A stretch of DNA of 64,000 nucleotides. Source: Bacilli bacterium. GTDB lineage: Bacteria; Bacillota_I; Bacilli_A; RF39; UBA660. The notes under the pieces are model-generated. The model ran no database searches. It saw nothing but the letters and a program-made list of their open reading frames with translations, and was not told the DNA's origin. Location: NCBI GenBank assembly GCA_045541255.1, contig JAZQIU010000022.1, positions 4,264 to 68,263 of the forward strand, read 5' to 3'. Positions 1 through 38,018 of the stretch are shown here, one piece after another. The number at the start of each line of letters is the position of its first letter. Positions within the stretch are counted from its first letter, which is position 1. A program made the translations under genes and the position numbers.

Positions 1-1261
1 CTTTAACTTCATCTACATTAGATACCTGCAATTCCTTTTGTGTATCTAAAAATATCTTTACTTCATTACTTAATTCAATATCAGTTTTGACTATTTCCTT
101 CTGCTCTAAATACCTTTCATAATAATCTAAATATTTTAAATATAATTCACATAATGGTACTCTAAGCTGAAGTGTTTCATTTTGCGATTGTAGATCTATA
201 AAACTTTTTTCTTTTAAATTAATTTCTTGTGATAATTCATTAATTTTGTTTTGTAGATCTTCATAACTAAAAATATTATTATCATTAAGAAAATTTATTG
301 TATCCACTATCCTGTTAAATCTTTTAACTTCTAAAAATCTTGAATTGTAATATTTAGGGTAAGAAACTTTAACATCTAAACCTTTCATGCTTAATAAGAT
401 AGATTGTTTTGATATATCCGCCAACATACTTTGAATATTTAATAATTCACTAGAATTATTTTTAATATTATAGTTTTGAAATGCAAATACCTTTTGATTA
501 CTTCTTTTATCATAAAAAAATTCTTTTAATGATTCTTCAGAATAATCTTCTCCCAATACTTTCATCGTTACATATTTTTCTTTTCCTAATGGTTTAACCT
601 TTATATACTTCCCATACTTAATCTGATAACCTTCCATTAATAGTCTTTCTAAAAGTTCATCTAAAGAAAAACATTCTTCTTTTAAAGTTTCTATCATTTC
701 AATAATTTGTTTTTTCCAAGATTTATTTGCTGTTGCATACAAATATTTATTCTTATGAAATCTACTTATTTTTGGTGCATCTTCTATTATCTTTAATCCA
801 TGTTCTAAAGCAATCTCATCACTTGCATCTCTTAATCCATATAATCCTTCTTTTGGATTAGCAAGTCTATCTTCTAATTTCTTACCATTCATATCAACTG
901 CATTAACAACAAAATGATTATGCAAGTGTCCTTGATCAATATGCGTTGTTACCAATACTTGATAATTAGGATATAGTCTTTTCATTAATTCTATTCCCAT
1001 CTGATGAACTTCTTCTGCTGTTAAATCTTTTTCTTTCGGATCAAAACTTTGATAACCATGATAACAAGTTCTACTTTCTTTTTCCTCGTTAATATGGAAT
1101 TTATCATTATTTAATTTCATTTCATAAGATGCAAATTCAGAGGAACAATTAATTCCTGTAATTAAAGTTCCTCCATCAGTTTTCTTTGCATCTTTTATAT
1201 AATTAATACAATCATTTCTTCCTTGTACTCCATGAACTGCCCATCGTGCTGTTGTAGGAAT
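1..1261 (-). CDS. MobA/VirD2-family conjugative relaxase (Relaxase/Mobilisation nuclease domain); C-terminus runs off the window; ATT initiation codon
   Basis: Own translation of the minus strand (absent from ORF track): (I->fM)PTTARWAVHGVQGRNDCINYIKDAKKTDGG...YHGYQSFDPKEKDLTAEEVHQMGIELMKRLYPNYQVLVTTHIDQGHLHNHFVVNAVDMNGKKLEDRLANPKEG. It carries the HxDxxHxHxH histidine motif of this relaxase family. The frame stays open to nt 1. There is no in-frame ATG/GTG/TTG near the N-terminus; ATT at 1261-1259 lies 6 nt after AAGGAGGG. Confidence 0.85.
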   Translation of the reverse strand, partial: MPTTARWAVHGVQGRNDCINYIKDAKKTDGGTLITGINCSSEFASYEMKLNNDKFHINEEKESRTCYHGYQSFDPKEKDLTAEEVHQMGIELMKRLYPNYQVLVTTHIDQGHLHNHFVVNAVDMNGKKLEDRLANPKEGLYGLRDASDEIALEHGLKIIEDAPKISRFHKNKYLYATANKSWKKQIIEMIETLKEECFSLDELLERLLMEGYQIKYGKYIKVKPLGKEKYVTMKVLGEDYSEESLKEFFYDKRSNQKVFAFQNYNIKNNSSELLNIQSMLADISKQSILLSMKGLDVKVSYPKYYNSRFLEVKRFNRIVDTINFLNDNNIFSYEDLQNKINELSQEINLKEKSFIDLQSQNETLQLRVPLCELYLKYLDYYERYLEQKEIVKTDIELSNEVKIFLDTQKELQVSNVDEVK

Positions 1262-1263
1262 GT

Positions 1264-2049
1264 TTATCCCTCCTTTACTTGTAGTTCATCTTTTGTATTA
1301 CAATTTAATAATTTTATATTTTTGTTCTGTTTTTCTTTTTCATTATATTTATTAATACTTTCTTCTTTATTATTAAAGTATTCTGCTAAATAAATATTTA
1401 ATTCATTATTATCAGAACTAAAAAACAAATAACATTTTTCTCTTAATGCTTTTTCCCTTTGAATATTTATTTTTGTAATTGCATTTGCTTCATCCAATGT
1501 TTTCACATCTATTTTTTCTGAATTATCTAAACTAACTAATAAAAAACCTTCTTTAGAATTTTTTGTTCCTAGAGTACTTGGTAAAACAATAACAAATTTT
1601 TTATTAGATACATATTGAATAAATTTTTCTGTTACTTTGTTTTTTTCAATCAATCTTAATCTTTTTTGAAATTTAGGAACTGAATTTGAAGATAGTTTTG
1701 TTATTAATTCTTTTGTCAGTTTTTCAATCGCATTAACTATTTTGATATTATCCTCTTTAATTATCTCGATGTTTTCTTTTGTTATAGTAATGTTTTTTGA
1801 TATATCAGCTTGTTTTTTCAAAATATCTTTTACAACTAAAATAAATTCACTTACAATTTTACAAACATCTTGTTTTCCTGAAACATCTTCTACATATAAT
1901 CTTTCATATATACAAGCATCTCTTACATATTCAGCAAGGCAATCCCCATAGCCATATTCTTTTGCTTTATTACTAATTATTTTTCTTTCTTCTGGAGTAA
2001 CTAAAATATTTATTTTGTCTCTACGTTTTTTATTAGTGGTGTTTGTCAT
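1264..2049 (-). CDS. MobC-like relaxosome accessory protein with long K/E/N-rich C-terminal extension
   Basis: The N-terminus RRDKINILVTPEERKIISNKAKEYGYGDCLAEYVRDACI resembles the conserved bacterial mobilisation (MobC) signature. The gene lies directly upstream of the relaxase; its stop TAA is at 1266-1264. Confidence 0.7.
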   Translation of the reverse strand: MTNTTNKKRRDKINILVTPEERKIISNKAKEYGYGDCLAEYVRDACIYERLYVEDVSGKQDVCKIVSEFILVVKDILKKQADISKNITITKENIEIIKEDNIKIVNAIEKLTKELITKLSSNSVPKFQKRLRLIEKNKVTEKFIQYVSNKKFVIVLPSTLGTKNSKEGFLLVSLDNSEKIDVKTLDEANAITKINIQREKALREKCYLFFSSDNNELNIYLAEYFNNKEESINKYNEKEKQNKNIKLLNCNTKDELQVKEG

Positions 2050-2575
2050 ATTCCACCTCTAACTTTCTTTTTAAATCTTCTAAATATTTTAAATATGATT
2101 TCCGATAATATTTTTCATTTATATATTTAACTCCTTCAGCTTTAATAAAAATAATTCCATCTTCTATATATTTCAAATCGTTTTTATATTGTTTACACAT
2201 TTTTGAAATTGCAACATCAATACTGTTTAAATCTTTATCAAAATACTCTGCCATTTCGTGTTTACTCATATCACTATATTTAATTTCATTATGAGAAATA
2301 TTTAAAGCATCTTCAAATCTTTTTATTAATTTCTCATAAAAGGTAATTTCTAAGTCTAAATAATATTTATCTTTTCTCAAATACACTTCTTTGATCCATT
2401 CTACAAATTCAAGACTACAATACTCTGTTCTTTGATTATTATTTGGTTCTCTTACATAAATCCAATTTTCAGCTGGATGTCTTTGTCGCATCTTTTGAAT
2501 AATCCTATCCAGTTGCTTTGATGTTAAATTTAGTTCTTTTTCTACATACCATCTATCTTGAAATTTTTTACCCAT
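2033..2575 (-). CDS. hypothetical protein, first gene of the mobilisation operon (possible DNA-binding accessory factor)
   Basis: 180-aa ORF that overlaps the MobC-like gene by 17 nt. It is the first ORF after the hairpin-rich non-coding gap. No family recognised. Confidence 0.55.
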   Translation of the reverse strand: MGKKFQDRWYVEKELNLTSKQLDRIIQKMRQRHPAENWIYVREPNNNQRTEYCSLEFVEWIKEVYLRKDKYYLDLEITFYEKLIKRFEDALNISHNEIKYSDMSKHEMAEYFDKDLNSIDVAISKMCKQYKNDLKYIEDGIIFIKAEGVKYINEKYYRKSYLKYLEDLKRKLEVEYDKHH

Positions 2576-2719
2576 TTTTCTCCTTTCTTAACTTAGAAAT
2601 TGTCCACGTTAATTAACGTAGTAATATAAAATATCAAGCATGGTGTATCTACACCCATTTTGCTTGTTAGGGAATACCCTAAAACCCTTCAAATTAGTCT
2701 CCGACGGTTTAATAAAAAT
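2576..2719 (-). promoter_or_regulatory. candidate origin of transfer (oriT) and mob-operon control region
   Basis: Largest non-coding gap in the 36-kb element and its locally most G+C-containing stretch. It holds three inverted repeats within 80 bp: perfect 14-bp palindrome ACGTTAATTAACGT (2606-2619), GGTGTA-TC-TACACC (2642-2655) and TTAGGG-AATA-CCCTAA (2667-2682), followed by the direct repeat ACCCT-AAA-ACCCT. It lies immediately upstream of the MobC/relaxase operon. Confidence 0.45.
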
Positions 2720-3067
2720 TTAAAAATTTTTATCTATTTCTATTTCACTTTTTTTATTACAATTAACAGAATAATAATTTAATTTATCAAAAAAAGGCAC
2801 ATCAAATATACTTTTGTTCTGTGCCTTTTCTATATCTTTTTTAGTTATTATTCCTTTATAATACATATCTGTTAAATTGTGAGAAAGTGTCAAAGGATTA
2901 ATATTTTCTTGCATATTATTATTACATATATTAAATAAAAGTGATGATTCCTCATCAGATATTTCAGGAATAATATCATAAATACCTTGTAATATTAAAT
3001 AACTTTCTAAATGATTTTTATGATATTCTGGCATTATTTTATAGCAAGTAATTAACTGTTCCATCAC
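2720..3067 (-). CDS. hypothetical protein
   Basis: 115-aa ORF. Its start ATG overlaps the upstream stop (GTGATGG) with an embedded GGAG. No family recognised. Confidence 0.55.
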   Translation of the reverse strand: MMEQLITCYKIMPEYHKNHLESYLILQGIYDIIPEISDEESSLLFNICNNNMQENINPLTLSHNLTDMYYKGIITKKDIEKAQNKSIFDVPFFDKLNYYSVNCNKKSEIEIDKNF

Positions 3068-3732
3068 ACCAACTCCATTTCTTTTTCATTTGTTTCATTT
3101 GATAATTTTTCTTTAATTTTATCCAAATCTTTCTCAACTTTTTTCCAATCTATGCAATCTTCTAACGATGATATATAGTCTAAAACTTTCTCTCTATTTT
3201 CCAAATCTAATTCTATAAAATTCTTCAAATAATCTTGATTATTTACTCTTCCTGAATAACAAATAATATAATTATCTAAATCTGTATCATATTTTTCACA
3301 ATACATTTTTATTGCTCTATACTTAATTTCTATACCGCCCAAATGTACATCAGTCATATCAGTATTTCGATAATCCCAATCTCCACACAGTCTATTAAAT
3401 TCTTTAAGTTTTTTATTAATTTCTTTGTAATTCAATCTTGTAGAATTTGAAATTATTAAATAATTTTTATGGTGCATCTTATTTTGGATTGTTTCAATAG
3501 TAGGCAGTTTCTTTTTTATATTATAATATCTTCTAACTACTCTATTTAGATCTTTAGATAACTGATATTCATAATCCATTTTTTTATTTAACCCCATCTT
3601 CTTTAGTTCTAACTCAAAATTATAAGAAGTAATATATTTATCACCATTATACACATCTAAACTTATTAAAACTCTTTGACCTCGTTTATCTTTTATATCA
3701 CTTACAATAGTATATAAATTTTTATATTTCAT
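3064..3732 (-). CDS. hypothetical protein
   Basis: ORF track gives 3064-3759. The preferred start is the third ATG (MKYKNLY...), 10 nt after GGAG and overlapping the ArdC-like stop. No family recognised. Confidence 0.55.
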   Translation of the reverse strand: MKYKNLYTIVSDIKDKRGQRVLISLDVYNGDKYITSYNFELELKKMGLNKKMDYEYQLSKDLNRVVRRYYNIKKKLPTIETIQNKMHHKNYLIISNSTRLNYKEINKKLKEFNRLCGDWDYRNTDMTDVHLGGIEIKYRAIKMYCEKYDTDLDNYIICYSGRVNNQDYLKNFIELDLENREKVLDYISSLEDCIDWKKVEKDLDKIKEKLSNETNEKEMELV

Positions 3733-4663
3733 GCTCATCAAGCTCCATTTCTTTTTCATTATCTAATGTTTTTATTAATGATTTTTCTTCCATATAATCA
3801 ACTATTTTATCTGCATCTGATATTGCTTTAAAAAGTTCATTAGGTTTGTCTTTTAAAATATCTATCCAATTTTGGATATATGCTTTATGATTATTTAAGT
3901 GGTTTTCATCATATTCCAAACCTAATTTTTGCATCAAGAAAGATGAACTTATTTCTGCTCTCAATTCTTCTTTTGCATATTCAGAACTTCCAAAACCACC
4001 ACTTAAATCTCTATTTAATCTATTCTTATGACCTGTAGAATGTGCTAGTTCATGCAATTGCGTAGAATAGTATCCATACTTATTTTTAAATGTATTAATT
4101 GGTGGTAATACTACCATATCATTTCTAATATCGTAATATGCACTATTACCAAATTCTTGATATTTAACTTCTATATTATCAATTATATTTTTAATATATT
4201 CTGAAGTATTTATTTGTTCTTTTTCTGTTTCTATTCGTTTAGGTATCCCTTCAATCAAATCACCATTAAACACCGTTGTACACTTAGTTATTATTCTAAA
4301 ATTTTCTTCTTGTTCTGGATCTTCACGAACTATTTTCTCATATTCCTTGAAAGAACAAATTTTCCTCTCTTTTATATTATATCTGCTCCAATACTCTACG
4401 CATACACCTTGTCCTACCGCAGACTCTTTAAACTTCCAATTCTTTTTCTTAATTTGATTATAAGTACACCATCTATTATCTTTATAACCTTTTTTTACTG
4501 ATATATATGACAATGCCAAATTATTAACACCCTTATACTTCTTCCCTGAAATAGCATTAACAGGTTGCTCAACAGTCCATAATTTTTCCCAAGGAACAAC
4601 ATCTTCTTCTAAACTTTTAATGTACATATCAATTAAATTCTGTCTTGCTTTTGTATATTTCAA
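3722..4663 (-). CDS. ArdC-like antirestriction protein (N-terminal ssDNA-binding ArdC-N domain plus zincin metallopeptidase domain)
   Basis: N-terminal ...WEKLW...GKKYKGVNNLAL... is typical of ArdC-N/DUF1738. The C-terminal domain carries HELAHSTGH (HExxH). TTG start at 4663 directly follows the upstream TAA. Confidence 0.8.
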   Translation of the reverse strand: MKYTKARQNLIDMYIKSLEEDVVPWEKLWTVEQPVNAISGKKYKGVNNLALSYISVKKGYKDNRWCTYNQIKKKNWKFKESAVGQGVCVEYWSRYNIKERKICSFKEYEKIVREDPEQEENFRIITKCTTVFNGDLIEGIPKRIETEKEQINTSEYIKNIIDNIEVKYQEFGNSAYYDIRNDMVVLPPINTFKNKYGYYSTQLHELAHSTGHKNRLNRDLSGGFGSSEYAKEELRAEISSSFLMQKLGLEYDENHLNNHKAYIQNWIDILKDKPNELFKAISDADKIVDYMEEKSLIKTLDNEKEMELDEHEI

Positions 4664-5599
4664 TTAATAATCACGCTCCAATTCAATATCCTTTGAATCA
4701 TGACCCATTGCAATATGTTTTATTTTGGGAATAAAGTCTTTCAAATATATATTTTCATTTGAACAATATATATCTACTTCTAAATCTTCTAAAATATTAT
4801 GAACTTCTATTACATTTAAAATATTTCTTGATATTCTATCAATACTCATCATATAAACATCCTTCATATTGTTTGATTTTAAATCTTCTAACATATAAGA
4901 AAATGCTGGATTATTTAAATCCAATCCACTAAAACCATTATCTACATATATATTTATATTTTCTTCTGCTATTTCAGGATATTTTAATTTCAATTTATTA
5001 AAATTATAACTTATCTGTTTTTTTATTGCATCCTCAGAATATAATGCAGATCTACAATAAACAGAATACTCTTTTCTTTCAATTCTATCATTTTCTCTTG
5101 CTTCTTTTATAACAGCATTTATAGCATCTGAAATATCCGCTTCTTCTAAATCAACATCATATTCTATTTCTCCATCAGAATTATAATAAGATAATTCTAA
5201 CCAATTATTATTATAAAATTCCAATTCATAATTTTCATCGTTACCTGTTAAGATCGAAACCAAATGTTCATCATCTTTAATAAATTGTTTCATTTCCTCA
5301 TAAAATAATCCAGATTCATTTTTATCTTTTACAGATGCGATTAAATCACCTTTATGATAAAAATTTTCTTTATAATTTTGTTCATAATCCTCCTCATATT
5401 CATCTAGATCTTCATCTTCCTCTAATTTTTCTTCTAAAACAAAATCTCTTTTTGCCAGAAGTTTGCAACTAACTATACCTCTTGCTATTATCTCGTATTT
5501 ACTTTTATCATCAAATTCTATTAATGCCACTGTCCCACCATGCCACAAAACATTCTCAAAACCTTTTTTATTATCATATCTATTAACAGTTAGCTTCAT
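4664..5599 (-). CDS. protein with C-terminal serine-recombinase (resolvase) catalytic-domain homology, no DNA-binding domain, and an unknown acidic N-terminal domain
   Basis: The C-terminal ~140 aa read YSVYCRSALYSEDAIKKQ...IYVDNGFSGLDLNNPAFSYMLEDLKSNNMKDVYMMSIDRISRNILNVIEVHNILEDLEVDIY. This aligns by eye with the Y-x-R-V-S...D.G.SG....RP....ML......D.V.V...DRLSRN core of large serine recombinases. The preferred start is MKLTVNRY (5599) behind GAGAGGGG. Confidence 0.6.
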   Translation of the reverse strand: MKLTVNRYDNKKGFENVLWHGGTVALIEFDDKSKYEIIARGIVSCKLLAKRDFVLEEKLEEDEDLDEYEEDYEQNYKENFYHKGDLIASVKDKNESGLFYEEMKQFIKDDEHLVSILTGNDENYELEFYNNNWLELSYYNSDGEIEYDVDLEEADISDAINAVIKEARENDRIERKEYSVYCRSALYSEDAIKKQISYNFNKLKLKYPEIAEENINIYVDNGFSGLDLNNPAFSYMLEDLKSNNMKDVYMMSIDRISRNILNVIEVHNILEDLEVDIYCSNENIYLKDFIPKIKHIAMGHDSKDIELERDY

Positions 5600-5612
5600 A
5601 TTTTCCCCTCTC

Positions 5613-7001
5613 TTAAAACATTTCATCAGTTATATCAAAATCTGCATCAATTTCTTCATTATTTTTTAAATAAATTTCATTATAAATTTCATTAACTTCA
5701 TTAAATAATTTAGTTTGAATAATTGATAATTCTTCTTTAGTTAGGGTATGATTATTATCAATTGTATAGCCTGATACAGATACACCACCCATCTTTTCAT
5801 CAAATTCTAATTCACAAACAACTTCTTTTCCATTAACATTAAAATTAAATTTTTTGTTCTCTTTTCCATCATTAGAAAATTCAAAACAACTAATTATTTC
5901 AGGTTTAATATCAATATATTCTAATGTCTTTGGATAAGTATCAATAATATTAAATTCTATATAGTCTTGAATTCCAATGTTGCTTAATTCTGATTCTATA
6001 TTATCTATTTTCTCAAATAATTGATTATAATTAATATTCCAACTATCTAATAAATCATCAGCATACAACCTTATAGATTCATTATTATCAAAAGATAAAA
6101 CTTTTTTTACTAAATCTTTTAACTCTGGAGAAATTTTAACAATATCTGTTTTGTTTCTAACATTAAATCCTATAACTTTTTCAATTAATAATTCATCGGT
6201 AATCATTTGATTTTCAAGATTAAAATAATCGTACCCTTCATATAACTTTCTTCCGTCTTTGAAACTAATTTTATAATGCAAACCAACCTTATCTTCATCC
6301 CTCCATGAATTTAAGATTTCTATATTATATAAGTTTTGTAATCGTTTTTTTTCTTCGTAATATTTATTTTTTGCATCTTTAACTTTTAATTCAGCATTTA
6401 AAAAATCAATATCTGAACTATTAACCATTTTTTTATAAAAGTTTATAGCATTTGTTAAATCTCTTGAACATTCTATAAAATGTTTATTAAATTCATCTTG
6501 TGATTTTTCAGGATATTCTAAAATAAACATTAAATCTTCATATAAACTAGCATTAGATTTTACATTTAATCCTTGCCATTGTTTGCTGTTATTATTAATA
6601 CCATTTAAAAACTTTATTGCAACACCACCAGCATCATTCCAATCAAATAAGTTTTTTGTATAATCATCTATTAAATAATCAAACTTTGATACACCATTAG
6701 GAACAGACAATGCTTTATTATCACCATATTTAATAAAAATTCTTTTGTTTTTTGATAGTTCTGGTAAATATCTATCTAACCAATTATTCTTTTCCTCTAA
6801 AGCATATTTACTATCATTTAAAAAGGAAGAAAGTATATAAATATCTTCTCCCTTTTTTACTAATCCTTTTATAACTTGTAATAAAAATTCATTAGGTTTT
6901 AATTTTTCATAATATCCTTTTTCATATAATATATCTGTTGATTCATTTTCTTTCCATTCAGCTAAAGTTCCATCCATATCAATAAATAATCTTCTATTCA
7001 T
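5613..7001 (-). CDS. HAD-superfamily 5'(3')-deoxyribonucleotidase-like domain fused to a ~300-aa unknown C-terminal region
   Basis: N-terminus MNRRLFIDMDGTLAEW (DxDGT motif I), ...IYILSS... and ...YLIDDY..., as in NT5C/phage-type nucleotidases. The rest is unrecognised. The protein ends in DITDEMF. Confidence 0.65.
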   Translation of the reverse strand: MNRRLFIDMDGTLAEWKENESTDILYEKGYYEKLKPNEFLLQVIKGLVKKGEDIYILSSFLNDSKYALEEKNNWLDRYLPELSKNKRIFIKYGDNKALSVPNGVSKFDYLIDDYTKNLFDWNDAGGVAIKFLNGINNNSKQWQGLNVKSNASLYEDLMFILEYPEKSQDEFNKHFIECSRDLTNAINFYKKMVNSSDIDFLNAELKVKDAKNKYYEEKKRLQNLYNIEILNSWRDEDKVGLHYKISFKDGRKLYEGYDYFNLENQMITDELLIEKVIGFNVRNKTDIVKISPELKDLVKKVLSFDNNESIRLYADDLLDSWNINYNQLFEKIDNIESELSNIGIQDYIEFNIIDTYPKTLEYIDIKPEIISCFEFSNDGKENKKFNFNVNGKEVVCELEFDEKMGGVSVSGYTIDNNHTLTKEELSIIQTKLFNEVNEIYNEIYLKNNEEIDADFDITDEMF

Positions 7002-7003
7002 AC

Positions 7004-7198
7004 TTATTTCTCCTGAATTTGATTATCCAACTCTTGTTGCATTTGGTAAATTTTTTCTTGTTTCTTTTTAAAATCATATAAAACTTTAAGTTGCTGATCT
7101 AAATCACTAATCTTGTCTTCCACTTTTTTTATATTTTCTAATTCCTTTGTTTTCATTAACTCTATTTTTTCTATCTTTTTTTCTAATGTCTTATTCAT
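7004..7198 (-). CDS. small coiled-coil protein (hypothetical)
   Basis: 64-aa K/E/Q-rich ORF packed between neighbours with 2-nt and 19-nt gaps. Confidence 0.4.
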   Translation of the reverse strand: MNKTLEKKIEKIELMKTKELENIKKVEDKISDLDQQLKVLYDFKKKQEKIYQMQQELDNQIQEK

Positions 7199-7217
7199 TT
7201 TTTTCTCCTTTTCTTTT

Positions 7218-7586
7218 TTACATTTCTATATCTTTATCAAAATCGTTTTGTTGTTTATTTATTTCTTTTTCTCTTACTGGAGATACTAAACTAAAATCGT
7301 CAGGAATTATTTTAATTGTTTTTCTCTTTTCACCATCCTTTTCATAACTGCTAATATCCACTTCACCTGTAACAGAAACTATATCCCCTATTTTGAAATA
7401 ATCAACTGTTTTTTCAGCTTTCTTACCCCAAAGTTCGCAATCAAAAAAATTTGTTTTATATATACCTTCTGATTTTTTTCTTTTACTCTGTACTGCAACT
7501 GAGATATTTGCAACATTGCCATTTTTAGTATTTTTTATTTCTAAACCATTTGCAATTCTACCAACTAGAACAATATTATTTACCAT
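7218..7586 (-). CDS. ssb: single-stranded DNA-binding protein (OB fold), element-encoded
   Basis: MVNNIVLVGRIANGLEIKNTKNGNVANISVAV...FFDCELWGKKAEKTVDYFKIGDIVSVTGEV is a classic SSB N-terminal OB-fold signature. The C-terminus is DFDKDIEM rather than the canonical D-D-(I/L)-P-F. Confidence 0.85.
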   Translation of the reverse strand: MVNNIVLVGRIANGLEIKNTKNGNVANISVAVQSKRKKSEGIYKTNFFDCELWGKKAEKTVDYFKIGDIVSVTGEVDISSYEKDGEKRKTIKIIPDDFSLVSPVREKEINKQQNDFDKDIEM

Positions 7587-7942
7587 TATATTTCCCTTTC
7601 CTTTTCTATATCTATTACTTTATTTTTTTCATTTACAAAATATTTAATATTTTTCATAAACTCATCTTGCATATTTTCTTGTTCCATTTCTTCAAAAATA
7701 TCAATAAAATTTTCTGCTTGTATTCCTTTTAACTTAATATATGGTTTTGTAAAATTCACTAAGTTAAAAACATCTATTAGTTCTTCAGATAAATCTTCTA
7801 ATTCTTTTTTCTTATCTATACTATCTAATTGACCACCATCCAGTAATGTTCCAGTACAATCATAAAAACTATAATCAATATGTTCTGTATCATTTGATAT
7901 ATGCAAAAAATTATATTCACTACTAATCACAATTAGATTCAT
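7586..7942 (-). CDS. hypothetical protein, paralogue of 9454-9813
   Basis: MNLIVISSEYNFLHISN...DGGQLDS aligns with MNIIVISEDNKILHITN...FGGVLES of the other copy. The start overlaps the upstream stop (TAATG). Confidence 0.6.
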   Translation of the reverse strand: MNLIVISSEYNFLHISNDTEHIDYSFYDCTGTLLDGGQLDSIDKKKELEDLSEELIDVFNLVNFTKPYIKLKGIQAENFIDIFEEMEQENMQDEFMKNIKYFVNEKNKVIDIEKEREI

Positions 7943-8409
7943 TATATTTCTATCTCCTCCTCTATGTCTTCTTGCTCTTGTTCTTTTTCTTCAAATACTT
8001 GTTTAGCTAACATCAAACCATTTCTAAGATTTTCACTATGTCTAAGATTATATTCAGAAATATTAAGTGCCTCTAATACTGGTTGAATATCACGAGTATA
8101 TCCATATTCGTGATTATACATCTCATCTAAAAACATATCTTTAATAAATTTGTCACCAATTGTATCAGATTTTATTTCAAATTCTAGTTCTTTCTTATGA
8201 CGAGCATGAACTTCTTCTACTTTTGGCAAATCAACTTTTTTTAAATATATACCAGCACCAAAATAAATAAGTTTGTTAGTTTCATTTTCATTTAAACCCA
8301 GCTTTTTTAAACCATTTTTAAATTGTTCATCATTGAAAGCAAACATATAAGGAAGTTCATTAACTTCTTTTTGATGCTTATCTTTTAACAATCTATACTT
8401 ATTAGCCAT
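7942..8409 (-). CDS. hypothetical protein
   Basis: 155-aa ORF with TAATG coupling at both ends. No family recognised with confidence. Confidence 0.55.
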   Translation of the reverse strand: MANKYRLLKDKHQKEVNELPYMFAFNDEQFKNGLKKLGLNENETNKLIYFGAGIYLKKVDLPKVEEVHARHKKELEFEIKSDTIGDKFIKDMFLDEMYNHEYGYTRDIQPVLEALNISEYNLRHSENLRNGLMLAKQVFEEKEQEQEDIEEEIEI

Positions 8410-9461
8410 TATATTTCTATCTCCTCCATTTCTATCTCTTCATTTGTTTTCTCATTAATAATTTCTACTTCATACAAAACATTTTTCCCATAAGTTATTG
8501 ATGAAATTTTTTCAAAATCAAAACTGTGATTTCGCCAATTACCACTTGATTCTTTATATTTTTCTAAAAAATCTTTAACAATATCATAAGACTTTGCATA
8601 CATATCAGAATTTTTTTCGCATCGTTCTAAATCATTTACCAATGTATTTTTAGGATATTTAAAAGTTAAAGTATTTCCATAATAATTAATAGTTATATTT
8701 AAATTAACCGCTTCTATATCTTTGATACTAGACAATATTTTTCTATTCAAATACAAACCATCATATTTATTATCTTTGTTTTCCAAGATTTCTTTTAAAT
8801 AGTCATTTTGATAATCATTTTTTAGAATTGCCATACCTATTTCTTTTCTTATTTTTTCATCATTCTGCATCCATTTTGTTATCTTTAAAATTACATCAAC
8901 AGAATCATTTAAATAGTCATTATATATTAATTTATCACGAGTTTTAAATTCATCTTCATATTTATTTCTTGCACTAAAAGATGGTAAATCAACATAATTT
9001 TCTATCTCACTTGCAACAAATCTTCTATTTACATTATCCTTGTAACCATCGAAATAATATTCACTTTGATTATCAAATTCATCCTTCGATTCTTTTCGTA
9101 AAACATCTTTATTTTCAATACAGTAATCATTCATAATTTTTTCAATATCATTTTCCATTTTGTTTGATAATTCTCCAAAAAAAGATATTTTTACGATTTT
9201 AGATTCTCTTAATATTCTATCTACATCATACTTACAATTATATAAAACTTTATCTATACAATCATAATATCCCTCAAAATTATATTCTCTATCATCCATT
9301 CTATTAGGATCATATCTTTTAGAATATAACAAATAAAATCTATCATTATATTGTTCTTTATAAAAGTATTTACTTTCATAACTATACTGCTCATTTATAT
9401 ATAAATAGTGATTTATATATTCATTAATTAGAAAATCATCTAATGCCATTTTATTAAACAT
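8409..9461 (-). CDS. hypothetical protein
   Basis: ORF track gives 8409-9494. The preferred start is MFNKMALDD (9461), 6 nt after AAAGGTGG, giving an 8-nt ATGTTTAA overlap with the upstream stop. Confidence 0.55.
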   Translation of the reverse strand: MFNKMALDDFLINEYINHYLYINEQYSYESKYFYKEQYNDRFYLLYSKRYDPNRMDDREYNFEGYYDCIDKVLYNCKYDVDRILRESKIVKISFFGELSNKMENDIEKIMNDYCIENKDVLRKESKDEFDNQSEYYFDGYKDNVNRRFVASEIENYVDLPSFSARNKYEDEFKTRDKLIYNDYLNDSVDVILKITKWMQNDEKIRKEIGMAILKNDYQNDYLKEILENKDNKYDGLYLNRKILSSIKDIEAVNLNITINYYGNTLTFKYPKNTLVNDLERCEKNSDMYAKSYDIVKDFLEKYKESSGNWRNHSFDFEKISSITYGKNVLYEVEIINEKTNEEIEMEEIEI

Positions 9462-9813
9462 ATTGCCACCTTTCTTTAAAATAAAAGTAGTCATCTTTTC
9501 CGCTTATTGAATCAATATATTCAATAATTTTTCTTGATGATTTTTTATTATTTTCATATTTTATAAGTTTCAGCAAAGGAATAGTATTAGAACCATATAA
9601 ATATATATAAGGTTGTTCAAATTCTATTTCTTCCTGAATTAAATTCATAATCTCTTGAGTTAATTTCTCGTCATTAAAATATTCATATACACTTTCCAAT
9701 ACTCCACCAAACAAATAATACCCTTTTGAATTATAAAGAGTATATTCTGCTTGATAACCAAAATTTGTGATATGCAAAATTTTATTATCTTCACTAATTA
9801 CTATAATATTCAT
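9454..9813 (-). CDS. hypothetical protein, paralogue of 7586-7942
   Basis: N-terminal similarity to 7586-7942. TAATG coupling to the DUF4314-like gene. Confidence 0.6.
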   Translation of the reverse strand: MNIIVISEDNKILHITNFGYQAEYTLYNSKGYYLFGGVLESVYEYFNDEKLTQEIMNLIQEEIEFEQPYIYLYGSNTIPLLKLIKYENNKKSSRKIIEYIDSISGKDDYFYFKERWQYV

Positions 9814-10073
9814 TATATTTCTACCTCATCATGTACTTTAATATCTTTATCAATATTTTCTACAATTTCAAATTCATCTATTTCAGGAACTAATGCTAAA
9901 GTTCGTCCATTTTCCCAAATCATGTGTAATTGCCCTTCACTATCTATATAATCTATCGTTCCAATTGTTCCTGCTAGAATAGGATATTTATCATCCATAT
10001 CTTTAAGCATTTTCACTTTTGTTCCTATTGGATATTTTTCCTTAATTTTATTTAACTTATCTTCTGAAAGCAT
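9813..10073 (-). CDS. DUF4314-like small protein (common in Firmicutes conjugative elements)
   Basis: ...GTKVKMLKDMDDKYPILAGTIGTIDYIDSEGQLHMIWENGRTLALV matches, from memory, the DUF4314 pattern (G-T-x-V-x-hydrophobic-x-M-x-D-x-x-x-P-hydrophobic...G-x-hydrophobic-x-V-x-W-D/E-N-G-x-x-L). Confidence 0.55.
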   Translation of the reverse strand: MLSEDKLNKIKEKYPIGTKVKMLKDMDDKYPILAGTIGTIDYIDSEGQLHMIWENGRTLALVPEIDEFEIVENIDKDIKVHDEVEI

Positions 10074-10446
10074 ACTTATTATCTCCTTTTCTTAATATAC
10101 ACACACCATAAGGAAAACAATAATATTTACAAGTTTGGCAATTATTTCTATCTCTTCTAATAATAGGATTTATTTTAAAATCTCCATCTAAATTATGATT
10201 AGGCTGAATTAGATAATTATTAGATAAATAACCTGTTACTTTCAATAGTTTAATAAAATCAATTTCCAAAACTTCACATAAATTTATTAAAGTAATTAAA
10301 TTGAAATTCTTTCTTTCACCATTTTCAATTCTTGATAATTCTGTATCACTAATACCAACAATTCTTGATAAACCTCTAATAGAATAGTTTCTTTCTATTC
10401 TTTTACTTCTAAGTAAATCACTTAATAATAAATAGTTATATCTCAT
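10057..10446 (-). CDS. XRE-family HTH regulator with C-terminal CX2CX3CX5C cysteine cluster
   Basis: ERNYSIRGLSRIVGISDTELSRIENGERKNFNLITLINLCEVLEID is a Cro/C1-type HTH. The C-terminus reads CQTCKYYCFPYGVC. The preferred start is MRYNYLL (10446), 7 nt after AAGGAG; the track start at 10470 is a TTG inside the terminator T-run. Confidence 0.75.
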   Translation of the reverse strand: MRYNYLLLSDLLRSKRIERNYSIRGLSRIVGISDTELSRIENGERKNFNLITLINLCEVLEIDFIKLLKVTGYLSNNYLIQPNHNLDGDFKINPIIRRDRNNCQTCKYYCFPYGVCILRKGDNKYAFRR

Positions 10447-10470
10447 TTTTATTCTCCTTTTCTTTTTCAA

Positions 10471-10497
10471 AATAAAAAAGAATCAATTAAGATTCTT
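10471..10497 (-). terminator. rho-independent terminator/attenuator inside the element's gene array
   Basis: The minus strand reads AAGAATC-TTAATT-GATTCTT followed by TTTTTTATTTT. It lies 15 nt after the stop of 10512-11363 and immediately before the XRE gene's RBS. Confidence 0.55.
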
Positions 10498-10511
10498 CAA
10501 CATCAAATAAT

Positions 10512-11363
10512 TTACATTTCTATTTCTAAATCTTTTTCTAAAGATTTAGATAATTCAATATCAACAACACTTTTCAGTTTATTTAAACTATCATATAAAA
10601 CAGTTCCATTATATTTTCCCCAACTTTTAGAAACCTTTTCACCAAAATCATAACCATACAATTTATTATTTATAAATCCCTGTGTAGCTAATGGGACATC
10701 AATATTATATTCTTTAAATAAATATAAAAAATTATTTTGAATAGTCTTTTTATAATAATCATCATCTTTATAGTATTCATAAGCTTCTGATAAAACAAGT
10801 TTTCCTTCATGTATTGCAGTTTTCATAGACCATATTTTATCAAAAAATTCTTTGTTTTTAGTTTTAACTGTATTTTTTCTAGTTTCTTCTCTTTCTTTTT
10901 GTTCACTTTCTTCTTTCTGTCTTTTTAACTCTAAAAATTTTTCTCTAGACTTAATTGCATTTAAATAAAATTCTGGATAATTTTTACTTAAATATTCTAA
11001 TTCAACAATATTAAAATATTTATTTTCTGATATTCTTCTTTTTATATTATCAATAAAATTATCATAATAATTTTTTATTTTCTCTAAAGTAAAATCACAA
11101 TATGCAATATCTCTATCCTTGTTAAAATCTTCGTGTTCATCATTAATAGTTCTCTCGTAAATTCTATAATTAATAAAGAAATTATAGAGTATCCAATATT
11201 CTCCATTTTGATCTTTTGTTAATATATATGGAGCATCACTTTTATCTTCATTTAAAACATAAAATTCATAATCTTTATACCTAAATGATAATACATCTTT
11301 TTTTCTAGCAACATGAGTTTGTTTAGAACTAATATAATGAACTGTTTCTCTTTTCACATCCAT
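10512..11363 (-). CDS. hypothetical protein
   Basis: 283-aa ORF with a strong RBS (AAAGGAGGAAG) upstream. It ends DLEIEM with no downstream gene coupled to it. Confidence 0.55.
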   Translation of the reverse strand: MDVKRETVHYISSKQTHVARKKDVLSFRYKDYEFYVLNEDKSDAPYILTKDQNGEYWILYNFFINYRIYERTINDEHEDFNKDRDIAYCDFTLEKIKNYYDNFIDNIKRRISENKYFNIVELEYLSKNYPEFYLNAIKSREKFLELKRQKEESEQKEREETRKNTVKTKNKEFFDKIWSMKTAIHEGKLVLSEAYEYYKDDDYYKKTIQNNFLYLFKEYNIDVPLATQGFINNKLYGYDFGEKVSKSWGKYNGTVLYDSLNKLKSVVDIELSKSLEKDLEIEM

Positions 11364-11385
11364 TATTTATTATCTTCCTCCTTTG

Positions 11386-11745
11386 TTATTTTTCTATTTC
11401 CAATTCCATAGTTTTATTATTTTCTATATAACCTGTATCAACCAATATATCTTCTAAAGAACAAATTTCAAAATAATTATTTTTTGAATATTCACTTATA
11501 CTAGAAAATGTAAATCCCTTACCTAACTGATATTCAAAACATACATCTTCTGGATTACAATATTTTAGTCCTGCATTGTAACAAAATCCTTTTTCAAACC
11601 CATATTTATCAAATAATTTTTCCATATAATCTACTTTAGATAATCCTAAATTTTTCATTAGTTGAATAAAATTCTTAAATTCATTTTCATTTTTTAAATT
11701 TATAACAACTGAATTTAATAAAAATAATTCATATTTGTTTTCCAT
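11386..11745 (-). CDS. hypothetical protein
   Basis: 119-aa ORF with TAATG coupling to the upstream gene. Ends ELEIEK. Confidence 0.5.
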   Translation of the reverse strand: MENKYELFLLNSVVINLKNENEFKNFIQLMKNLGLSKVDYMEKLFDKYGFEKGFCYNAGLKYCNPEDVCFEYQLGKGFTFSSISEYSKNNYFEICSLEDILVDTGYIENNKTMELEIEK

Positions 11746-12074
11746 TATCTTTCTATTTCCTCCAATTCAATTGTTTCTAACTCCTCTTCTGTATATTCTT
11801 TGATTTTGTTATAACAAATCAAATTATTAACACACTCTATTATTTTCAATTCTGCCTCGCCAGAAACAATATTAATCACTTCATCTAATGTCAAATCTTT
11901 TCTTAATTCATTCTTATTAAAAGTTACTTCACATTCTTTTATATTTTCTTGAGTGGTTATATCACTTATATAATCTAAAATAATTTCTTGAAAATAAGGT
12001 TTTACTATATTTTCTCTAAAATTCGTAACACTTATATCACTTCTTTGTTTTAACAATTCAGATAATTTAATCAT
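11745..12074 (-). CDS. hypothetical protein
   Basis: 109-aa ORF with RBS AGGAAATCAAAGTG...ATG upstream. Ends ELEEIER. Confidence 0.5.
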   Translation of the reverse strand: MIKLSELLKQRSDISVTNFRENIVKPYFQEIILDYISDITTQENIKECEVTFNKNELRKDLTLDEVINIVSGEAELKIIECVNNLICYNKIKEYTEEELETIELEEIER

Positions 12075-12093
12075 TTTTCACTTTGATTTCCTT

Positions 12094-12801
12094 TCATTCA
12101 TATAAAAGTTTCATACCTAAATAAATACCATTTTCATTGGTTATAGGTTCGCATCTTCCAGATCCACCATAAGATTTTAATTCTTTAGCACAAGCATCTA
12201 CTACATTATTAATCGTATATCCATCTTCAAAAAGAAAATATTTTGGTGATGGTTTTTGAGAAGGAATAGTTATATTTTGTTGTGGTTTAGTTTCCTCTTT
12301 TTCGATTTTTGAAGAAGTGTTATTTTCAATTTTTGGAGGTGTTTGTGTTTCTTCTTTTACTTCTGGCTCTACTTCTTTAAGAGGTTCTTCTATTATTACT
12401 TTTAGAAAAGCCTGACTGACATTATTAGAACTATCAAAAACATAATATAAAATTTTATATTCACCTACTTTTGAATTATCTATTCTTGAATATTGAACTT
12501 TATCCTTTAAATCTCCATCCTCTTTATCAATAACGCTTTTAATAAATGAATTATAATCAAGCTCGCTATTAACCTCAATTTTAATTTCAGTATCCGTTAA
12601 TTCTAAAATAGGTGCTTCATCGTCTTTTTGTTCTATTACTTCATTTTGAATAGGTTTATCTTTAGGATGTTTCTCTTGTGAAGACAAATAATACAAAATT
12701 CCAAAAATTAAAAAACAAACAAAAAGAAGAGATATAATTATTATTAAATTTCTCTTCTTTCTATATTTCTTATACTTTAATAATAACTCTTCATCAGTCA
12801 A
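12094..12801 (-). CDS. membrane-anchored protein with Ig-like (DUF5011-type) domain
   Basis: N-terminal TM segment (LIIIISLLFVCFLIFGILYYL). This is followed by APILELTDTEIKIEVNSELDYNSFIKSVIDKEDGDLKDKVQYSRIDNSKVGEYKILYYVFDSSNNVSQAFLKVII, which resembles the bacterial Ig-like DUF5011 repeat. Paralogous to 14307-14702. Confidence 0.55.
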   Translation of the reverse strand: MTDEELLLKYKKYRKKRNLIIIISLLFVCFLIFGILYYLSSQEKHPKDKPIQNEVIEQKDDEAPILELTDTEIKIEVNSELDYNSFIKSVIDKEDGDLKDKVQYSRIDNSKVGEYKILYYVFDSSNNVSQAFLKVIIEEPLKEVEPEVKEETQTPPKIENNTSSKIEKEETKPQQNITIPSQKPSPKYFLFEDGYTINNVVDACAKELKSYGGSGRCEPITNENGIYLGMKLLYE

Positions 12802-23879: not shown

Positions 23880-26800
23880 TTATGCTACCTCCTTCTCTAA
23901 ATACTTATCTTTTACTTCTGTTAATTCTTTGTCTTGAAAAAAAGTAGTTAAAAAAGCAACAACTTCATCAGAAGTTTTAAACATTCCATTTTGAACAAGT
24001 TCATTTCTATATGGAGCAATATTTCTTCCTTCTGGTTTATACAAATATACATCATTTAATTTAACATGCACTACCGTTTCAAAACATTCGTAATCAGGTT
24101 CAATCGTTGCTGTTTTAAATTCTAATCTATCTAATCCTGATTTGTAAGTTACATCTTTAAATGACTTGATTAACTTATTAAAATCAACTTTGTCGTTTTT
24201 ACTAAACTGAATAACTTTACTTTCTTTTTTAGATAATCCTTTTCTTATTTCTTCAATACCATAATTACCAATATAACTTCCTTCTTTGGTATAAAAACTT
24301 AATTGTTCATTTTTAGATAATTCTAAAATAATATTTTCTTTATCATCTTTACACTTGATTAAATTAATTGAAATATAACCTATAATATTATCTATATTTA
24401 TTGGTATTTTAATAAAGTTACTACAATATTCACAATTTGTTTTAGGTACTTTTATAGTTTCTTTATCACCCTTTTTATATGAAGCAGGATAAAATACACT
24501 TAAATATTCTGTTATTTCATTAAATGCTAATCTTTTTTCATAAGTCTTTTCTTCACCATCAAACTTATATTTTGATATTCCTGTTCCTGTTAAAAAGTTC
24601 TTTTTAGGATGAACAATTAGATAACTATTATCTTGATTCCATTTACATATTTTTTTCATAATAAAAAGTAAAATATTCTTATCATTTGTTTTTACATAAT
24701 AACCGTTATCAGTTTCTTTAAATATTCTACTTTTAAAAACCTTACATACGGGTTCTTTTTGTGGGATAAAAGGTTGAACTTCTTTTATTGTTTCATCTGC
24801 TGGTATTTCTTCTTTCTTTTCTTCCTTTGAATTTTCACTTTCAAAAACATTATTTTTTTTACTTGTTTTATCCTCCCAATAATATTTTAATTCTTCAGCA
24901 CTTTTCTCATATTTAAAATTACCATGCTTATTATATACCTTATATTTATTTCCACTTTTTAATTTAGTAAAGATTATTTCACCAGACCAATTACATTCAT
25001 TTTTAGGTATATAAAAATAATCTTTTGCACCTGTATTAGGTATTCTCACAAAATAATGCGTATTAGTTTCAAAAGATGGATTTAAAAGTGTTTGATTTAT
25101 AGAAAATACATAATCTTTATTTACATCTTGTTCTTTATGAATTTCTTTTTTCAAATTATTCTGTTCCAATCCATTTTCTTTTATTAATTGTTCTTTTTCT
25201 AATTTCATTTTGCCATCTAAATTATTAAAGAAAAGTATTGTTTTGTAATTACCAGTTTTACCTTTAAATTCATTACTAATAAATTCTTTATTAATATTTA
25301 AAAATAAACATCCATATTTAAAAAAATCCATATTATCTGGATTTAAGAATAATCTATCTTGAATGTTTTCTTTAAATAACTTCATAATATCATTATCATA
25401 AACAAGAATACCATCTAAATCTTTGGTATCATTAATAATATATAATTCCTCAACTTCTTCTAAAGCAAGTTTATCTTTATCACTAAGTCCTTTTTCATAT
25501 TGTTTTATAACCTGCTGTTTTTGTTCAAAAGTAAGATTTACTCTTGCACTACCATTTATATTTTTTATATAAGTTTTATCAAATAAATCTTCATATTTAA
25601 ACCGATGTAAGGTTTCATAATTTGAATATTCATTGTCATTATTTAACACATCGTATATTAATAAAGCAGTATTTAATTTCATAGCGTTTTTAGATAAATA
25701 TTTAGTAGATTCTAAATGAAATAATCTTAACGCTTCATTATTGATTTGTTCTTTTTTTAATTCATAATATCCTGATAATACTTTATCATTCCTTTTATCT
25801 AAAAATTCCGCTAATTCATTTTTAATACGATCATCCATAACAATTGATTGAAAATTACTAATTGGATTAACCTTTGTAGAAATATTTTTAGGATAGATTA
25901 TTTCATCTAATTCTTCTTTAGTAAAATCAGTCTTTTTTAATAAATATTCTTTATATAAAGATTCATCTAATGTTGATGTTATAAACTCATCTTTCTTTGC
26001 CTTCTCAAAAACATCATGAATATTTAAAACAGATAATTCTTTATCCATAAAGTAATAATAATCCATCATAAATTCAAAAGCAGATATTCTAGCTTTTACA
26101 ATTTCTTGTTTAGGAATATTATCATTACCTATATCACCAAAATCTTTATAGTTACCTAATTTTGAAATATCAAGAACATCAACTTTAAATCCTTGCTTCA
26201 ATAGATTGGGAATTTGTTCAATCATCTTTTTTCTGCCTATATTTTCTTTATCATTTTTAAAATCATTATCTAATGCTAATACTAATGTTGAATTATCTTT
26301 CTTTAATAATTTTATATGTTCCTCTGTTATTGCTGTTCCCATTAAAGCAACAACATTATTAAATCCTAATTGTTTAGCTGAAATGACATCCATATAACCT
26401 TCAACAATATATAATTCATCATTATAAGAATATTTTTTAGCATCATGATAATTATATAGTAGTTCTTTTTTATGAAATATAGGTGTTTCTTTTGTATGAA
26501 GATATTTTGGTTCTTCATCTTTTATTGTTCTTCCTGCAAAAGTAATAACATTACCTTTTTCATCACAAATCGGAAACATTATCCTATCAACAAAAGTTTC
26601 ATAATATCCATTATCACCTAATTGAATTAATCCCAAATCAGTTAATTGATGTGGTTTTATTTTTGCATTTGGATCATTATTTTCTGACATTCTTATTATT
26701 TGACCTTTGGGAGCAAATCCTATATTCATTTCTTTTATTAATTCATCCGTTAATCCTCTATCTTTTAAATACTTTAAAGGTGCATCTCTAACAGCAGTTA

Positions 26801-36202: not shown

Positions 36203-36330
36203 TCTTAATCTCCTTTCAACTATATACGACTCGTAAAACTAAAAATACTTTTAAGACTATTCTTTATATTTTATTCGATCGTTCCTCCTTCCTTTTTAAT
36301 CCATAATATATAGATAAATTTTTAAACATC

Positions 36331-36357
36331 AAAAAAGAGAAATAAAGTTATTTCTCT
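36331..36357 (-). terminator. rho-independent terminator downstream of the XRE-membrane regulator gene
   Basis: The minus strand reads AGAGAAATAA-CT-TTATTTCTCT followed by TTTTTTGA. Confidence 0.6.
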
Positions 36358-36530
36358 TGCCTTTTCATTATAATTTATCTATATTACCATAATAGCACAT
36401 TTTAAGCGGAAGGTAAACGGAAATTCAAAAAAATTTAACATCAATTTTTCCCTTATTTTATAAGGGTTTGCGAGTTTCTTAAAAAAATATTTTTTTTCAA
36501 TTTTTTAAAAAGTCGAAAAATTTATATTTT

Positions 36531-37439: not shown

Positions 37440-37551
37440 TAGATTAACTCCTTTCGTATATAAGTTTAATATTTTATATGTTTTTTTTACATCAATTTTC
37501 AGTTGCATTTCATTTTTGCAACTCTAAATTTACATTAATATTATAACATAA

Positions 37552-37584
37552 GAAAAGCAAATCTTTTTATAAGATCTGCTTTTA
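37552..37584 (-). terminator. rho-independent terminator (structurally bidirectional)
   Basis: The minus-strand RNA reads AGCAGAUCUU-AUAAA-AAGAUUUGCU (10 bp including one G.U) followed by UUUUC. It has A/T runs on both sides. Confidence 0.6.
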
Positions 37585-37632
37585 TATTTTTTATATTTAA
37601 AAATCATAAAAATATGATTTATTATACTACTA

Positions 37633-37875: not shown

Positions 37876-37994
37876 ATAACTTCACCTTCCTTTCCTTAAT
37901 TTATTAATTCAAATATTAATCTAATTTTAAATAACATCACCTCATCTTTCTATAATTCATTCTATCATCCAATAATTAATTATTTATTATAAAA

Positions 37995-38015
37995 TAATTA
38001 AGAATTATTAATAAA
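37995..38015 (+). repeat. intergenic AT motif copy (degenerate G-variant): TAATTAAGAATTATTAATAAA
   Basis: Member of the TTATTAA[A/G]AATTATTAAA family. It abuts the csp terminator. Confidence 0.6.
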
Positions 38016-38018
38016 AAA

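Follow-up and report, generated by a model that had tools for sequence, protein, structure and literature searches.

In the 64,000-nt window analysed here (positions 4,264 to 68,263 of contig JAZQIU010000022.1, Bacilli bacterium, lineage RF39; UBA660), we found most of an integrative and conjugative element (ICE) from a low-GC gut Bacilli bacterium, with the ICE genes all on one strand and a block of 16 small minus-strand genes (2720-12074) lying directly beside the origin of transfer (oriT). An initial annotation had read this block as a candidate leading-region island that enters the recipient first, uses the transferred strand as its template and is followed last by the relaxase operon. That proposal was supported in part: the oriT position and the establishment-type gene content hold, whereas the leading-region position is contradicted by a nick motif predicted, from homology, on the coding strand. 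It seems to us fairly probable that this block forms the accessory, promoter-distal part of the transfer operon, and that its products, made in the donor, would act on or travel with the transferred strand.

The hairpin-rich gap noticed initially at 2576-2719 contains two adjacent hairpins, with a single-stranded DNA fold of -11.6 kcal/mol (z = -3.7), and we identify it as the oriT by sequence homology. Its 63-nt core (2625-2687, minus strand) occurs once in the window and includes a small hairpin, TTAGGG-TATT-CCCTAA (2667-2682), and a large hairpin, CAAGCA..GGTGT-AGAT-ACACC..TGCTTG (2635-2666), both written on the minus strand. The relatives that we compared include locus L001, six human-gut metagenome contigs (63-64% identity) and three loci reached via a 350-aa protein of the block. 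In eight relatives, 51-62 of 63-64 columns of the core were identical (81-98%), against only 38-48% identity for the flanking proteins, and the differences were confined to the loops and the bulge. A BLAST search of the gap against plasmids gave a match in the intergenic DNA between mobC and orf30 of Tn1549, in copies carried by enterococcal plasmids (pMG2200); we take this region to be the site of the experimentally mapped Tn1549 oriT. The alignment spans the small hairpin, CAAGCAAAA, the inner inverted repeat and ATGCTTG, with compensatory changes in the inner repeat (GGTGT/ACACC in the window versus GGGAGTG/CACTCCC in Tn1549). As in MOBP7-type oriTs, to which those of Tn1549, pCF10, pRS01 and pC221 belong, GGTGT-AGAT-ACACC is followed within 1-3 nt by ATGCTTG|A (2655-2634), and a ribbon-helix-helix (RHH) accessory gene and a PF03432 relaxase gene adjoin the site. 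The conserved core and the homology with the Tn1549 oriT both place the nick site in this gap. For the alternative named initially, an oriT near 36.2 kb, we found no copy of the core at 36.2-36.5 kb, where the sequence reads as a promoter plus leader hairpin preceding the adhesin genes, and this candidate was rejected. An RP4-type (ATCCTG) or RSF1010-type (GCGCCCT) nick core within the small hairpin was likewise dropped in favour of GCTTG; the loop bases vary in the family.

The strand that is nicked decides which side of the oriT enters the recipient first. The oriTDB nick sites are given as RYGCTTG|C for Tn1549, TGCTTG|CCA for pRJ6 and CTTG|CA for pRS01 (PMC7755788), and a pRS01 oligonucleotide with the inverted repeat and TATGCTTG|CAAAAGG (TATGCTTGCAAAAGG) yielded a 61-nt product, corresponding to a cut exactly after GCTTG (PMC4256276). 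In the window and in all nine family loci, ATGCTTG|A precedes the relaxase operon on its sense strand and, by homology to the mapped nick sites, the predicted nick falls at 2635|2634 on the minus (coding) strand. Positions -1 to -12 of this predicted nick strand (ACACCATGCTTG) are invariant in the family, whereas the mirror GCTTG on the plus strand is variable at positions -6 to -9 and lies farther from the inverted repeat. In pCF10, the inverted repeat and CGCTTG|CA likewise occupy the sense strand and closely precede pcfF and pcfG; in Tn1549, the sole match to RYGCTTG|C (ATGCTTG|C, immediately behind the inner inverted repeat) occurs on the strand opposite to the coding strand of mobC and of the relaxase gene, and the Tn1549 relaxase gene should therefore enter last.

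The relaxase remains on the 5' end and strand transfer runs 5' to 3', so that the predicted order of entry in the window's element starts with the relaxase operon. The genes for a 180-aa protein, a NikA-like protein and the relaxase would be followed by the sortase and integrase genes and the element junction, then by the regulator and promoter, the adhesin, primase and channel genes and PcfJ, and the 16-gene block would come last. The block would thus be 5' of the predicted nick, on the trailing side, and not first as initially proposed. The predicted transferred (minus) strand is the sense strand of all 16 block genes rather than their template and, as it would be the coding strand of every gene of the element, none could be read before the complement had been made.

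The anatomy of the block is as first described. All 16 minus-strand open reading frames (ORFs) were recovered with the same boundaries, the near-absence of intergenic DNA was reflected in a coding density of 99.1%, and there were exactly five 1-nt TAATG stop/start overlaps, at 7586, 7942, 8409, 9813 and 11745. Successive junction distances were -4, -38, 0, -14, +2, +19, -1, -1, -1, -41, -1, -17, +41, +22 and -1 nt, with +19 nt to the next upstream gene; start codons at 3732 (ATG after GGAG) and 9461 (ATG after GGAGG, in agreement with the database homologues of the 350-aa protein) would each shorten one of the long overlaps. No terminator-like site was found inside the block, where the longest intergenic stretch is 41 nt, and promoter-like sites were below the shuffled expectation. 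Gap lengths and the terminator and promoter scans, which did not extend to a homology search against Frpo sequences, revealed no Frpo- or ssi-type hairpin region. Tight packing is not peculiar to the block, since the transfer operon is equally compact up to 36.2 kb. Because the block directly follows the channel genes without a promoter, terminator or long gap of its own, it would be co-transcribed with them in the donor.

Acidic C-termini (…EEEIEI, …EEIEI and …LEIEM) were considered as a common export signal, but this idea was dropped because the tails are explained as an in-frame reading of the ribosome-binding site and spacer of the next gene (GGAGGAGATAGAAATATAATG); they may still have a second role. 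In addition, a near-identical junction of 17-20 nt (GAG[AG]TAGAAATATAATG) recurs at three boundaries (7925-7945, 8392-8412 and 9796-9816), and two LPD16-like paralogues each begin directly after such a junction (MN[LI]IVIS). These repeats may represent segmental duplication or strong selection on coupling signals.

Families could be assigned to nine of the 16 proteins. Pfam confirmed the ArdC, SSB (single-stranded DNA-binding protein), DUF4314 and XRE assignments made initially. The ArdC protein (3722-4663, minus strand as for all block genes; 313 aa) joins a single-stranded DNA-binding ArdC-N domain (PF08401, E 5.5e-19) to a zincin MPTase domain (PF18818, E 8.7e-39), in whose translation the zinc motif HExxH is intact as HELAH, and it shares 56-94% identity with its homologues in the relatives. 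The SSB (7218-7586), an OB-fold protein (PF00436, E 2.6e-19), ends in DFDKDIEM, an acidic and hydrophobic tail that differs from the canonical DDDIPF-type tip. The DUF4314 protein (9813-10073; Pfam E 5e-21) is fused to DUF3846 in L001, and the XRE-type helix-turn-helix (HTH) regulator (10057-10470; Pfam) keeps its position in the relatives. The nucleotidase fusion recognised initially (5613-7001; 462 aa) has a Pfam NT5C-type 5'-deoxynucleotidase domain of about 170 aa at its N-terminus and an extension of about 290 aa of undescribed type; relatives encode a short NT5C form of 185 aa, and a PDB sequence search with the fusion gave no match.

The protein described initially as having a recombinase domain only (4664-5626; 320 aa) has an N-terminal domain of no assigned family and a serine-recombinase catalytic-like domain with partial Pfam resolvase and NCBIfam matches. 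It aligns with catalytic domains of serine recombinases from conjugative transposons and, in the alignment with 3g13, has Ala at the position of the nucleophile Ser; the motif reads YCRSAL in the window and YCR[CVT][AD] in four relatives, with Ala or Asp at the nucleophile, versus the expected YxRVSTxxQ. We found no DNA-binding domain: the Pfam match covers profile positions 26-106, and the protein stops about 25 residues later. As it has neither the nucleophile serine nor a DNA-binding domain, we conclude that the protein is not a recombinase. No other gene comes close to this one in divergence between the window and L001, with 30% protein identity as compared with 94% and 76% for its neighbours.

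Ten ORFs had been set apart initially as belonging to no recognisable family, and for three of these a family was found. The protein encoded at 7942-8409 is a DUF7659 protein (Pfam E 5.6e-42), also present in L009 but not found in the examined parts of L001 or L003-L008, and those encoded at 7586-7942 and 9454-9813 are LPD16-like, the former by a weak Pfam match (E 2e-4) and the latter by its paralogy with the former (33% identity, E 3e-13) and by weak LPD16 matches on record for its homologues. The other seven stay orphans: 2720-3067, 3064-3759, 7004-7198, 8409-9494, 10512-11363, 11386-11745 and 11745-12074 had no match in Pfam, PHROGs or PADLOC, and the six that were scanned against NCBIfam (all except 7004-7198) had none there.

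Among these orphans, a 115-aa protein (2720-3067), the last gene before the oriT, occupies the same position in all relatives with 41-92% identity. The next gene (3064-3759; 222-231 aa) is in a variable slot, which in relatives is occupied instead by genes for 122 and 113 aa or for 419 and 205 aa. A 64-aa protein (7004-7198), coiled-coil-like by composition, is 67-79% identical in relatives, a 119-aa protein (11386-11745) is weakly conserved (26-31%), and a 109-aa protein (11745-12074) belongs to the variable part of the block. Two larger proteins, of 350 aa (8409-9461, in an ORF extending to 9494) and 283 aa (10512-11363), represent undescribed families unrelated to each other by profile-profile comparison. 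A word-indexed search of 5.8 billion proteins showed these families to be narrow, with 27 clusters for the 350-aa protein, 20 for the 283-aa protein and 10 for 3064-3759, none annotated. In a profile search of 1.84 billion proteins, the 350-aa family had 273 representatives, nearly all stand-alone proteins of 300-360 aa. AlphaFold2 models of the two proteins had pLDDT values of 88 and 93, respectively. Foldseek revealed no structural neighbour of the 350-aa model in PDB (best E 0.27) or BFVD (best E 0.12), with TMq <=0.18, and none of the 283-aa model in PDB (best E 0.88, TMq <=0.18); the 350-aa protein also had no match in a PDB sequence search or in tblastn against plasmids. In one database protein, P0112, the serine-less resolvase-like domain is fused to the 350-aa family, a fusion that links two families of the block.

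Comparison with the relatives showed that the block is both cargo and backbone, being syntenic yet mosaic across the family. Among elements whose relaxases share only 63% identity, the order is kept as XRE, LPD16-like, the 350-aa family (duplicated in some), the 119-aa family, SSB, short NT5C, the 64-aa protein, the resolvase-like protein, ArdC, the variable slot, the 115-aa protein and the oriT. Gene-content turnover, expected initially, was seen against L001 and the other relatives. For example, L001 shares 91% DNA identity with the window from the relaxase to ArdC and about 80% farther out, but its SSB, DUF7659 and most of its 350-aa gene have been replaced, an unrelated 267-aa gene occupies the SSB slot, and at the position of 11386-11745 and 11745-12074, immediately upstream of its 283-aa homologue, it encodes a DNA methylase. 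Rather than free cargo, a large share of the block forms a syntenic backbone conserved in the element family. The establishment-type content was also borne out, with ArdC and SSB in the block and orphan N6/N4 DNA methylases, DpnD/PcfM and DUF1281_C among the additional genes of relatives; L009 lacks ArdC, yet has a methylase and DpnD/PcfM. In a more distant relative (L013, 600-11074), a homologue of the 350-aa protein is found amid YodL, DUF5688, DUF4314 and LPD1 genes between an adhesin and a primase gene. This cluster is upstream of the primase and coupling-protein genes, at the start of the transfer operon and not beside the oriT. From these gene arrangements, membership in the channel operon is conserved and adjacency to the oriT is not.

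If the block is a donor-expressed part of the transfer operon, its proteins would be made alongside the mating channel, and ArdC, SSB, the nucleotidase, the LPD16, DUF4314 and DUF7659 proteins, the serine-less resolvase-like protein and the orphans would act on the strand during unwinding. They would coat or protect the transferred strand, and some, by analogy with other systems, may be exported along with it. The order in which the genes enter would then be irrelevant, and a second round of expression would come after conversion of the entire element to double-stranded DNA in the new host. Precedents for protein delivery include ArdC and the TraC1 primase, which travel with DNA (PMC5512222), and the F-plasmid SSB, which is translocated by the F type IV secretion system (T4SS; cited in PMC11137577). 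LPD16 is not known outside the polyvalent proteins of conjugative elements, and solo LPDs near T4SS genes have been proposed to aid early invasion (PMC5512222). Several points weigh against this explanation. The SSB-like PrgE of pCF10 is dispensable for transfer in laboratory conditions (PMC11137577), and seven of the 16 block proteins have no assigned function. Both the position and the strand of the nick are predictions, the relaxase is only 28-31% identical to those of characterised systems, the Tn1549 nick motif is taken from a secondary table, and the outer inverted repeat puts a second GCTTG on the opposite strand (CATTTTGCTTG|TTAGGG).

Nicking of the plus (template) strand instead, for example at TTTTGCTTG|TTAGGG, would send the relaxase operon last and make the 16 genes an early-read anti-defence leading region, which we regard as unlikely. 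This would be the usual arrangement, in that the relaxase is mostly in the lagging region (PMC11541004), and a plus-strand GCTTG does exist 3' of the inner inverted repeat; ArdC and SSB, the methylases in relatives and the one-way orientation would also fit leading-region content. Moreover, nicking of the template strand can occur in similarly organised Firmicutes elements, as in pLS20 with its one-directional transfer operon (PMC5313138) and as the antisense motif of Tn1549 indicates, and polarity must therefore come from the oriT itself. There, however, the plus-strand GCTTG aligns with TTGCTTG|T of Tn1549, a misfit to the listed RYGCTTG|C, its upstream bases vary as described above, and its spacing from the inverted repeat is 6 nt, as against 1-3 nt on the minus strand, the latter being like that of pRS01, Tn1549 and pCF10. 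The block also has no non-coding hairpin region that could provide a single-strand promoter. A purely donor-side role seems to us equally doubtful. In this case, the SSB, the nucleotidase and others, together with the upstream primase, would support rolling-circle replication of the excised element without any anti-defence function, while control of excision, integration or operon expression would fall to the serine-less resolvase-like protein and to the XRE regulator. About 10 of the 16 genes keep their order though the relaxases are only 63% identical, which is a backbone-like pattern; a serine-less, catalytic-domain-only resolvase homologue occurs in an element that integrates via a large serine recombinase, and is joined to the 350-aa family in P0112; and the XRE regulator is embedded in the block. 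However, ArdC, the orphan DNA methylases and DpnD/PcfM of the shared gene pool represent classic establishment or anti-restriction functions, slots have been swapped between elements that are 91% identical nearby, a turnover typical of conflict genes, and LPD16, DUF4314 and DUF3846 are tied to polyvalent invasion proteins. Quite improbable, in our estimate, is the more specific proposal that donor-made ArdC, SSB and several orphan proteins, among them the two with confident models but no structural neighbour, are sent through the T4SS with or ahead of the strand as counter-defence, hence the placing of their genes among the last transferred in pCF10-type elements and in the window's family, and that the serine-less resolvase-like protein is a new type of serine-integrase regulator.

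The genes on the other side of the oriT would form the relaxosome. The first (2033-2575, minus strand) encodes the 180-aa protein, a presumed relaxosome component, which has 40-85% identity and the same position in all relatives and no family match in Pfam, PHROGs or NCBIfam. It is followed by the gene for a NikA-like RHH relaxosome accessory protein (1264-2049, minus strand; PF21983, E 1.2e-6), which adjoins the relaxase gene in all relatives, and by the 5' part of a gene for a MobA/VirD2-type relaxase with an HIDQGHLHNH motif (1-1261, minus strand; PF03432, E 4.7e-30), which runs off the window. This relaxase shares 28.6% identity with Orf28 of Tn1549 (329 aa, E 1e-34) and 30.8% with PcfG (143 aa). 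At 1256-1290, there is no ATG, GTG or TTG between the upstream in-frame stop codon (1288-1286) and the conserved N-terminus; the probable start is ATT at 1261-1259, 6 nt after GGAGGG, with ATA at 1267-1265 as an alternative. Between the predicted nick and the first relaxosome gene lies a perfect 14-bp palindrome, ACGTTAATTAACGT (2606-2619), which probably serves as an operator or is bound by an accessory protein. The corresponding palindrome of L001 (about 8630-8645) is also perfect but differs in sequence, ATACCAATTGGTAT, and this swap suggests, at the level of sequence, that operator and binding protein co-vary.

The AT content of the window is very high (GC content 22-30%), the GC skew of the plus strand is strongly negative, and the minus strand carries nearly all genes up to 61 kb; at about 62 kb the sign of the skew flips and the genes move to the plus strand. 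In the direction of transcription, the ICE runs from a promoter and leader (about 36.3 kb) through LPXTG-type adhesins, a DnaG-type primase and the coupling protein to PrgI, VirB4 and a CHAP hydrolase, then through PcfJ, the 16-gene block and the oriT to the 180-aa protein, the NikA-like protein and the relaxase. VirB4, coupling protein, PrgI, cell-wall hydrolase and relaxase are thus present in the window, which stops short of an integrase. In relatives, the relaxase gene is followed by small genes, a sortase gene and a gene for a large serine recombinase (2-5 kb downstream of the relaxase), which is why we regard the element as an ICE. A megablast search of 1-12500 against PLSDB plasmids gave no match, an Rfam scan of the whole window gave none, and a tRNA scan found no tRNA. 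The primase (23880-27230) has 1116 aa, of which the first 365 or so match primase domains and the other 750 have no Pfam match. Before the first adhesin gene, 36203-36530 contains a stretch resembling a promoter as well as a hairpin with a T-run behind it (AGAGAAATAACTTTATTTCTCTTTTTTG), and looks like the leader or attenuator of the long transfer operon; the product of the gene just upstream (36531-37508) joins an XRE HTH to a DUF2975 membrane domain and is a likely element regulator. The next 910 nt (37509-38418) are without ORFs of at least 90 aa and separate this regulator from acyltransferase and glycosyltransferase genes in 38419-64000. The latter look like host cell-envelope genes, and one end of the ICE may lie near 37509-38418.

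Accessory or establishment clusters beside the oriT of Firmicutes elements are already known, as are solo polyvalent-protein domains; what is new is a family of gut ICEs not described before, in which several orphan protein families occur. Most useful is the finding that the oriT is inverted between related elements, which bears on how leading regions are assigned. Within the relaxase group of Tn1549 and pCF10, the oriT may be found in either orientation relative to the relaxase gene. Because this orientation varies, the side away from the relaxase is not always the leading one and polarity should be read from the nick motif, a caution for the large-scale mining of leading regions; variable oriT orientation may also contribute to the missing leading-region enrichment in some MOB types (PMC11541004). 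A question raised is why ArdC-type genes are just behind the oriT in both pCF10 and the window's family, to which delivery of donor proteins is one answer. The orphan families constitute a small pool restricted to gut Bacillota ICEs, two of them with confident models and no known fold, and are reasonable candidates for establishment or counter-defence functions.

Among characterised systems, pCF10 resembles the window's element in having a one-directional transfer operon, an ArdC-like gene (pcfD) immediately 5' of the oriT on the same strand, an oriT composed of a small G-rich hairpin (TTGGGGG-AA-CCCCAA), an inverted repeat and GCTTG| on the coding strand, RHH accessory and PF03432 relaxase genes next to it, and PcfJ and DpnD/PcfM-type genes in the element. 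However, pCF10 is a plasmid and not an ICE with a serine integrase, its relaxase is only 31% identical over 143 aa, and its PcfD is a multidomain protein of 720 aa, whereas the ArdC of the window is a solo protein of 313 aa, with 13 further small genes after it and two before. In pCF10 (L011, NC_006827.2), genes for PcfJ, an AcrIIA9-family protein and DpnD/PcfM are downstream of the relaxase on the opposite strand (5874-9515), whereas PcfJ is upstream in the operon here. With the coding-strand nick of pCF10, its true leading region is therefore downstream of the relaxase, where the transferred strand would be the template, and the predicted geometry of 5874-9515 is that of a classic leading region on the relaxase side of the oriT. 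Tn1549 has an oriT homologous over about 65 nt (small hairpin, CAAGCAAAA, inner inverted repeat and ATGCTTG|) and the closest characterised relaxase, Orf28, but its oriT is inverted with respect to the mob genes, so that the relaxase should go last there and first here; in addition, its large hairpin contains an insertion of about 45 nt, and its accessory protein is MobC-type (Orf29) rather than NikA-like.

The leading-region islands described by Samuel et al. 2024 (PMC11541004) are similar to the block in having small co-oriented genes by the oriT, with anti-restriction and SSB functions, methylases (here in relatives) and gene turnover between related elements. They differ in that the block is on the predicted trailing side, 5' of the nick as judged from Tn1549, pRS01 and pCF10, with the transferred strand as the sense strand, and is embedded in the channel operon without Frpo-like non-coding hairpins. 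The polyvalent proteins of Iyer et al. 2017 (PMC5512222) share with the block ArdC-N plus MPTase, LPD16 and a DnaG primase near T4SS genes, and the proposed help in early invasion at the level of protein delivered alongside DNA; in the window, however, separate small genes take the place of one giant polypeptide, and half of the block genes are outside any described domain family. Finally, p576 and pLS20, which are also Firmicutes conjugative elements, carry ardC and genes of unknown function thought to aid establishment (PMC6294495), but those genes are served by separate promoters under repressor control and point away from the conjugation operon, whereas the genes of the block are translationally coupled inside it.

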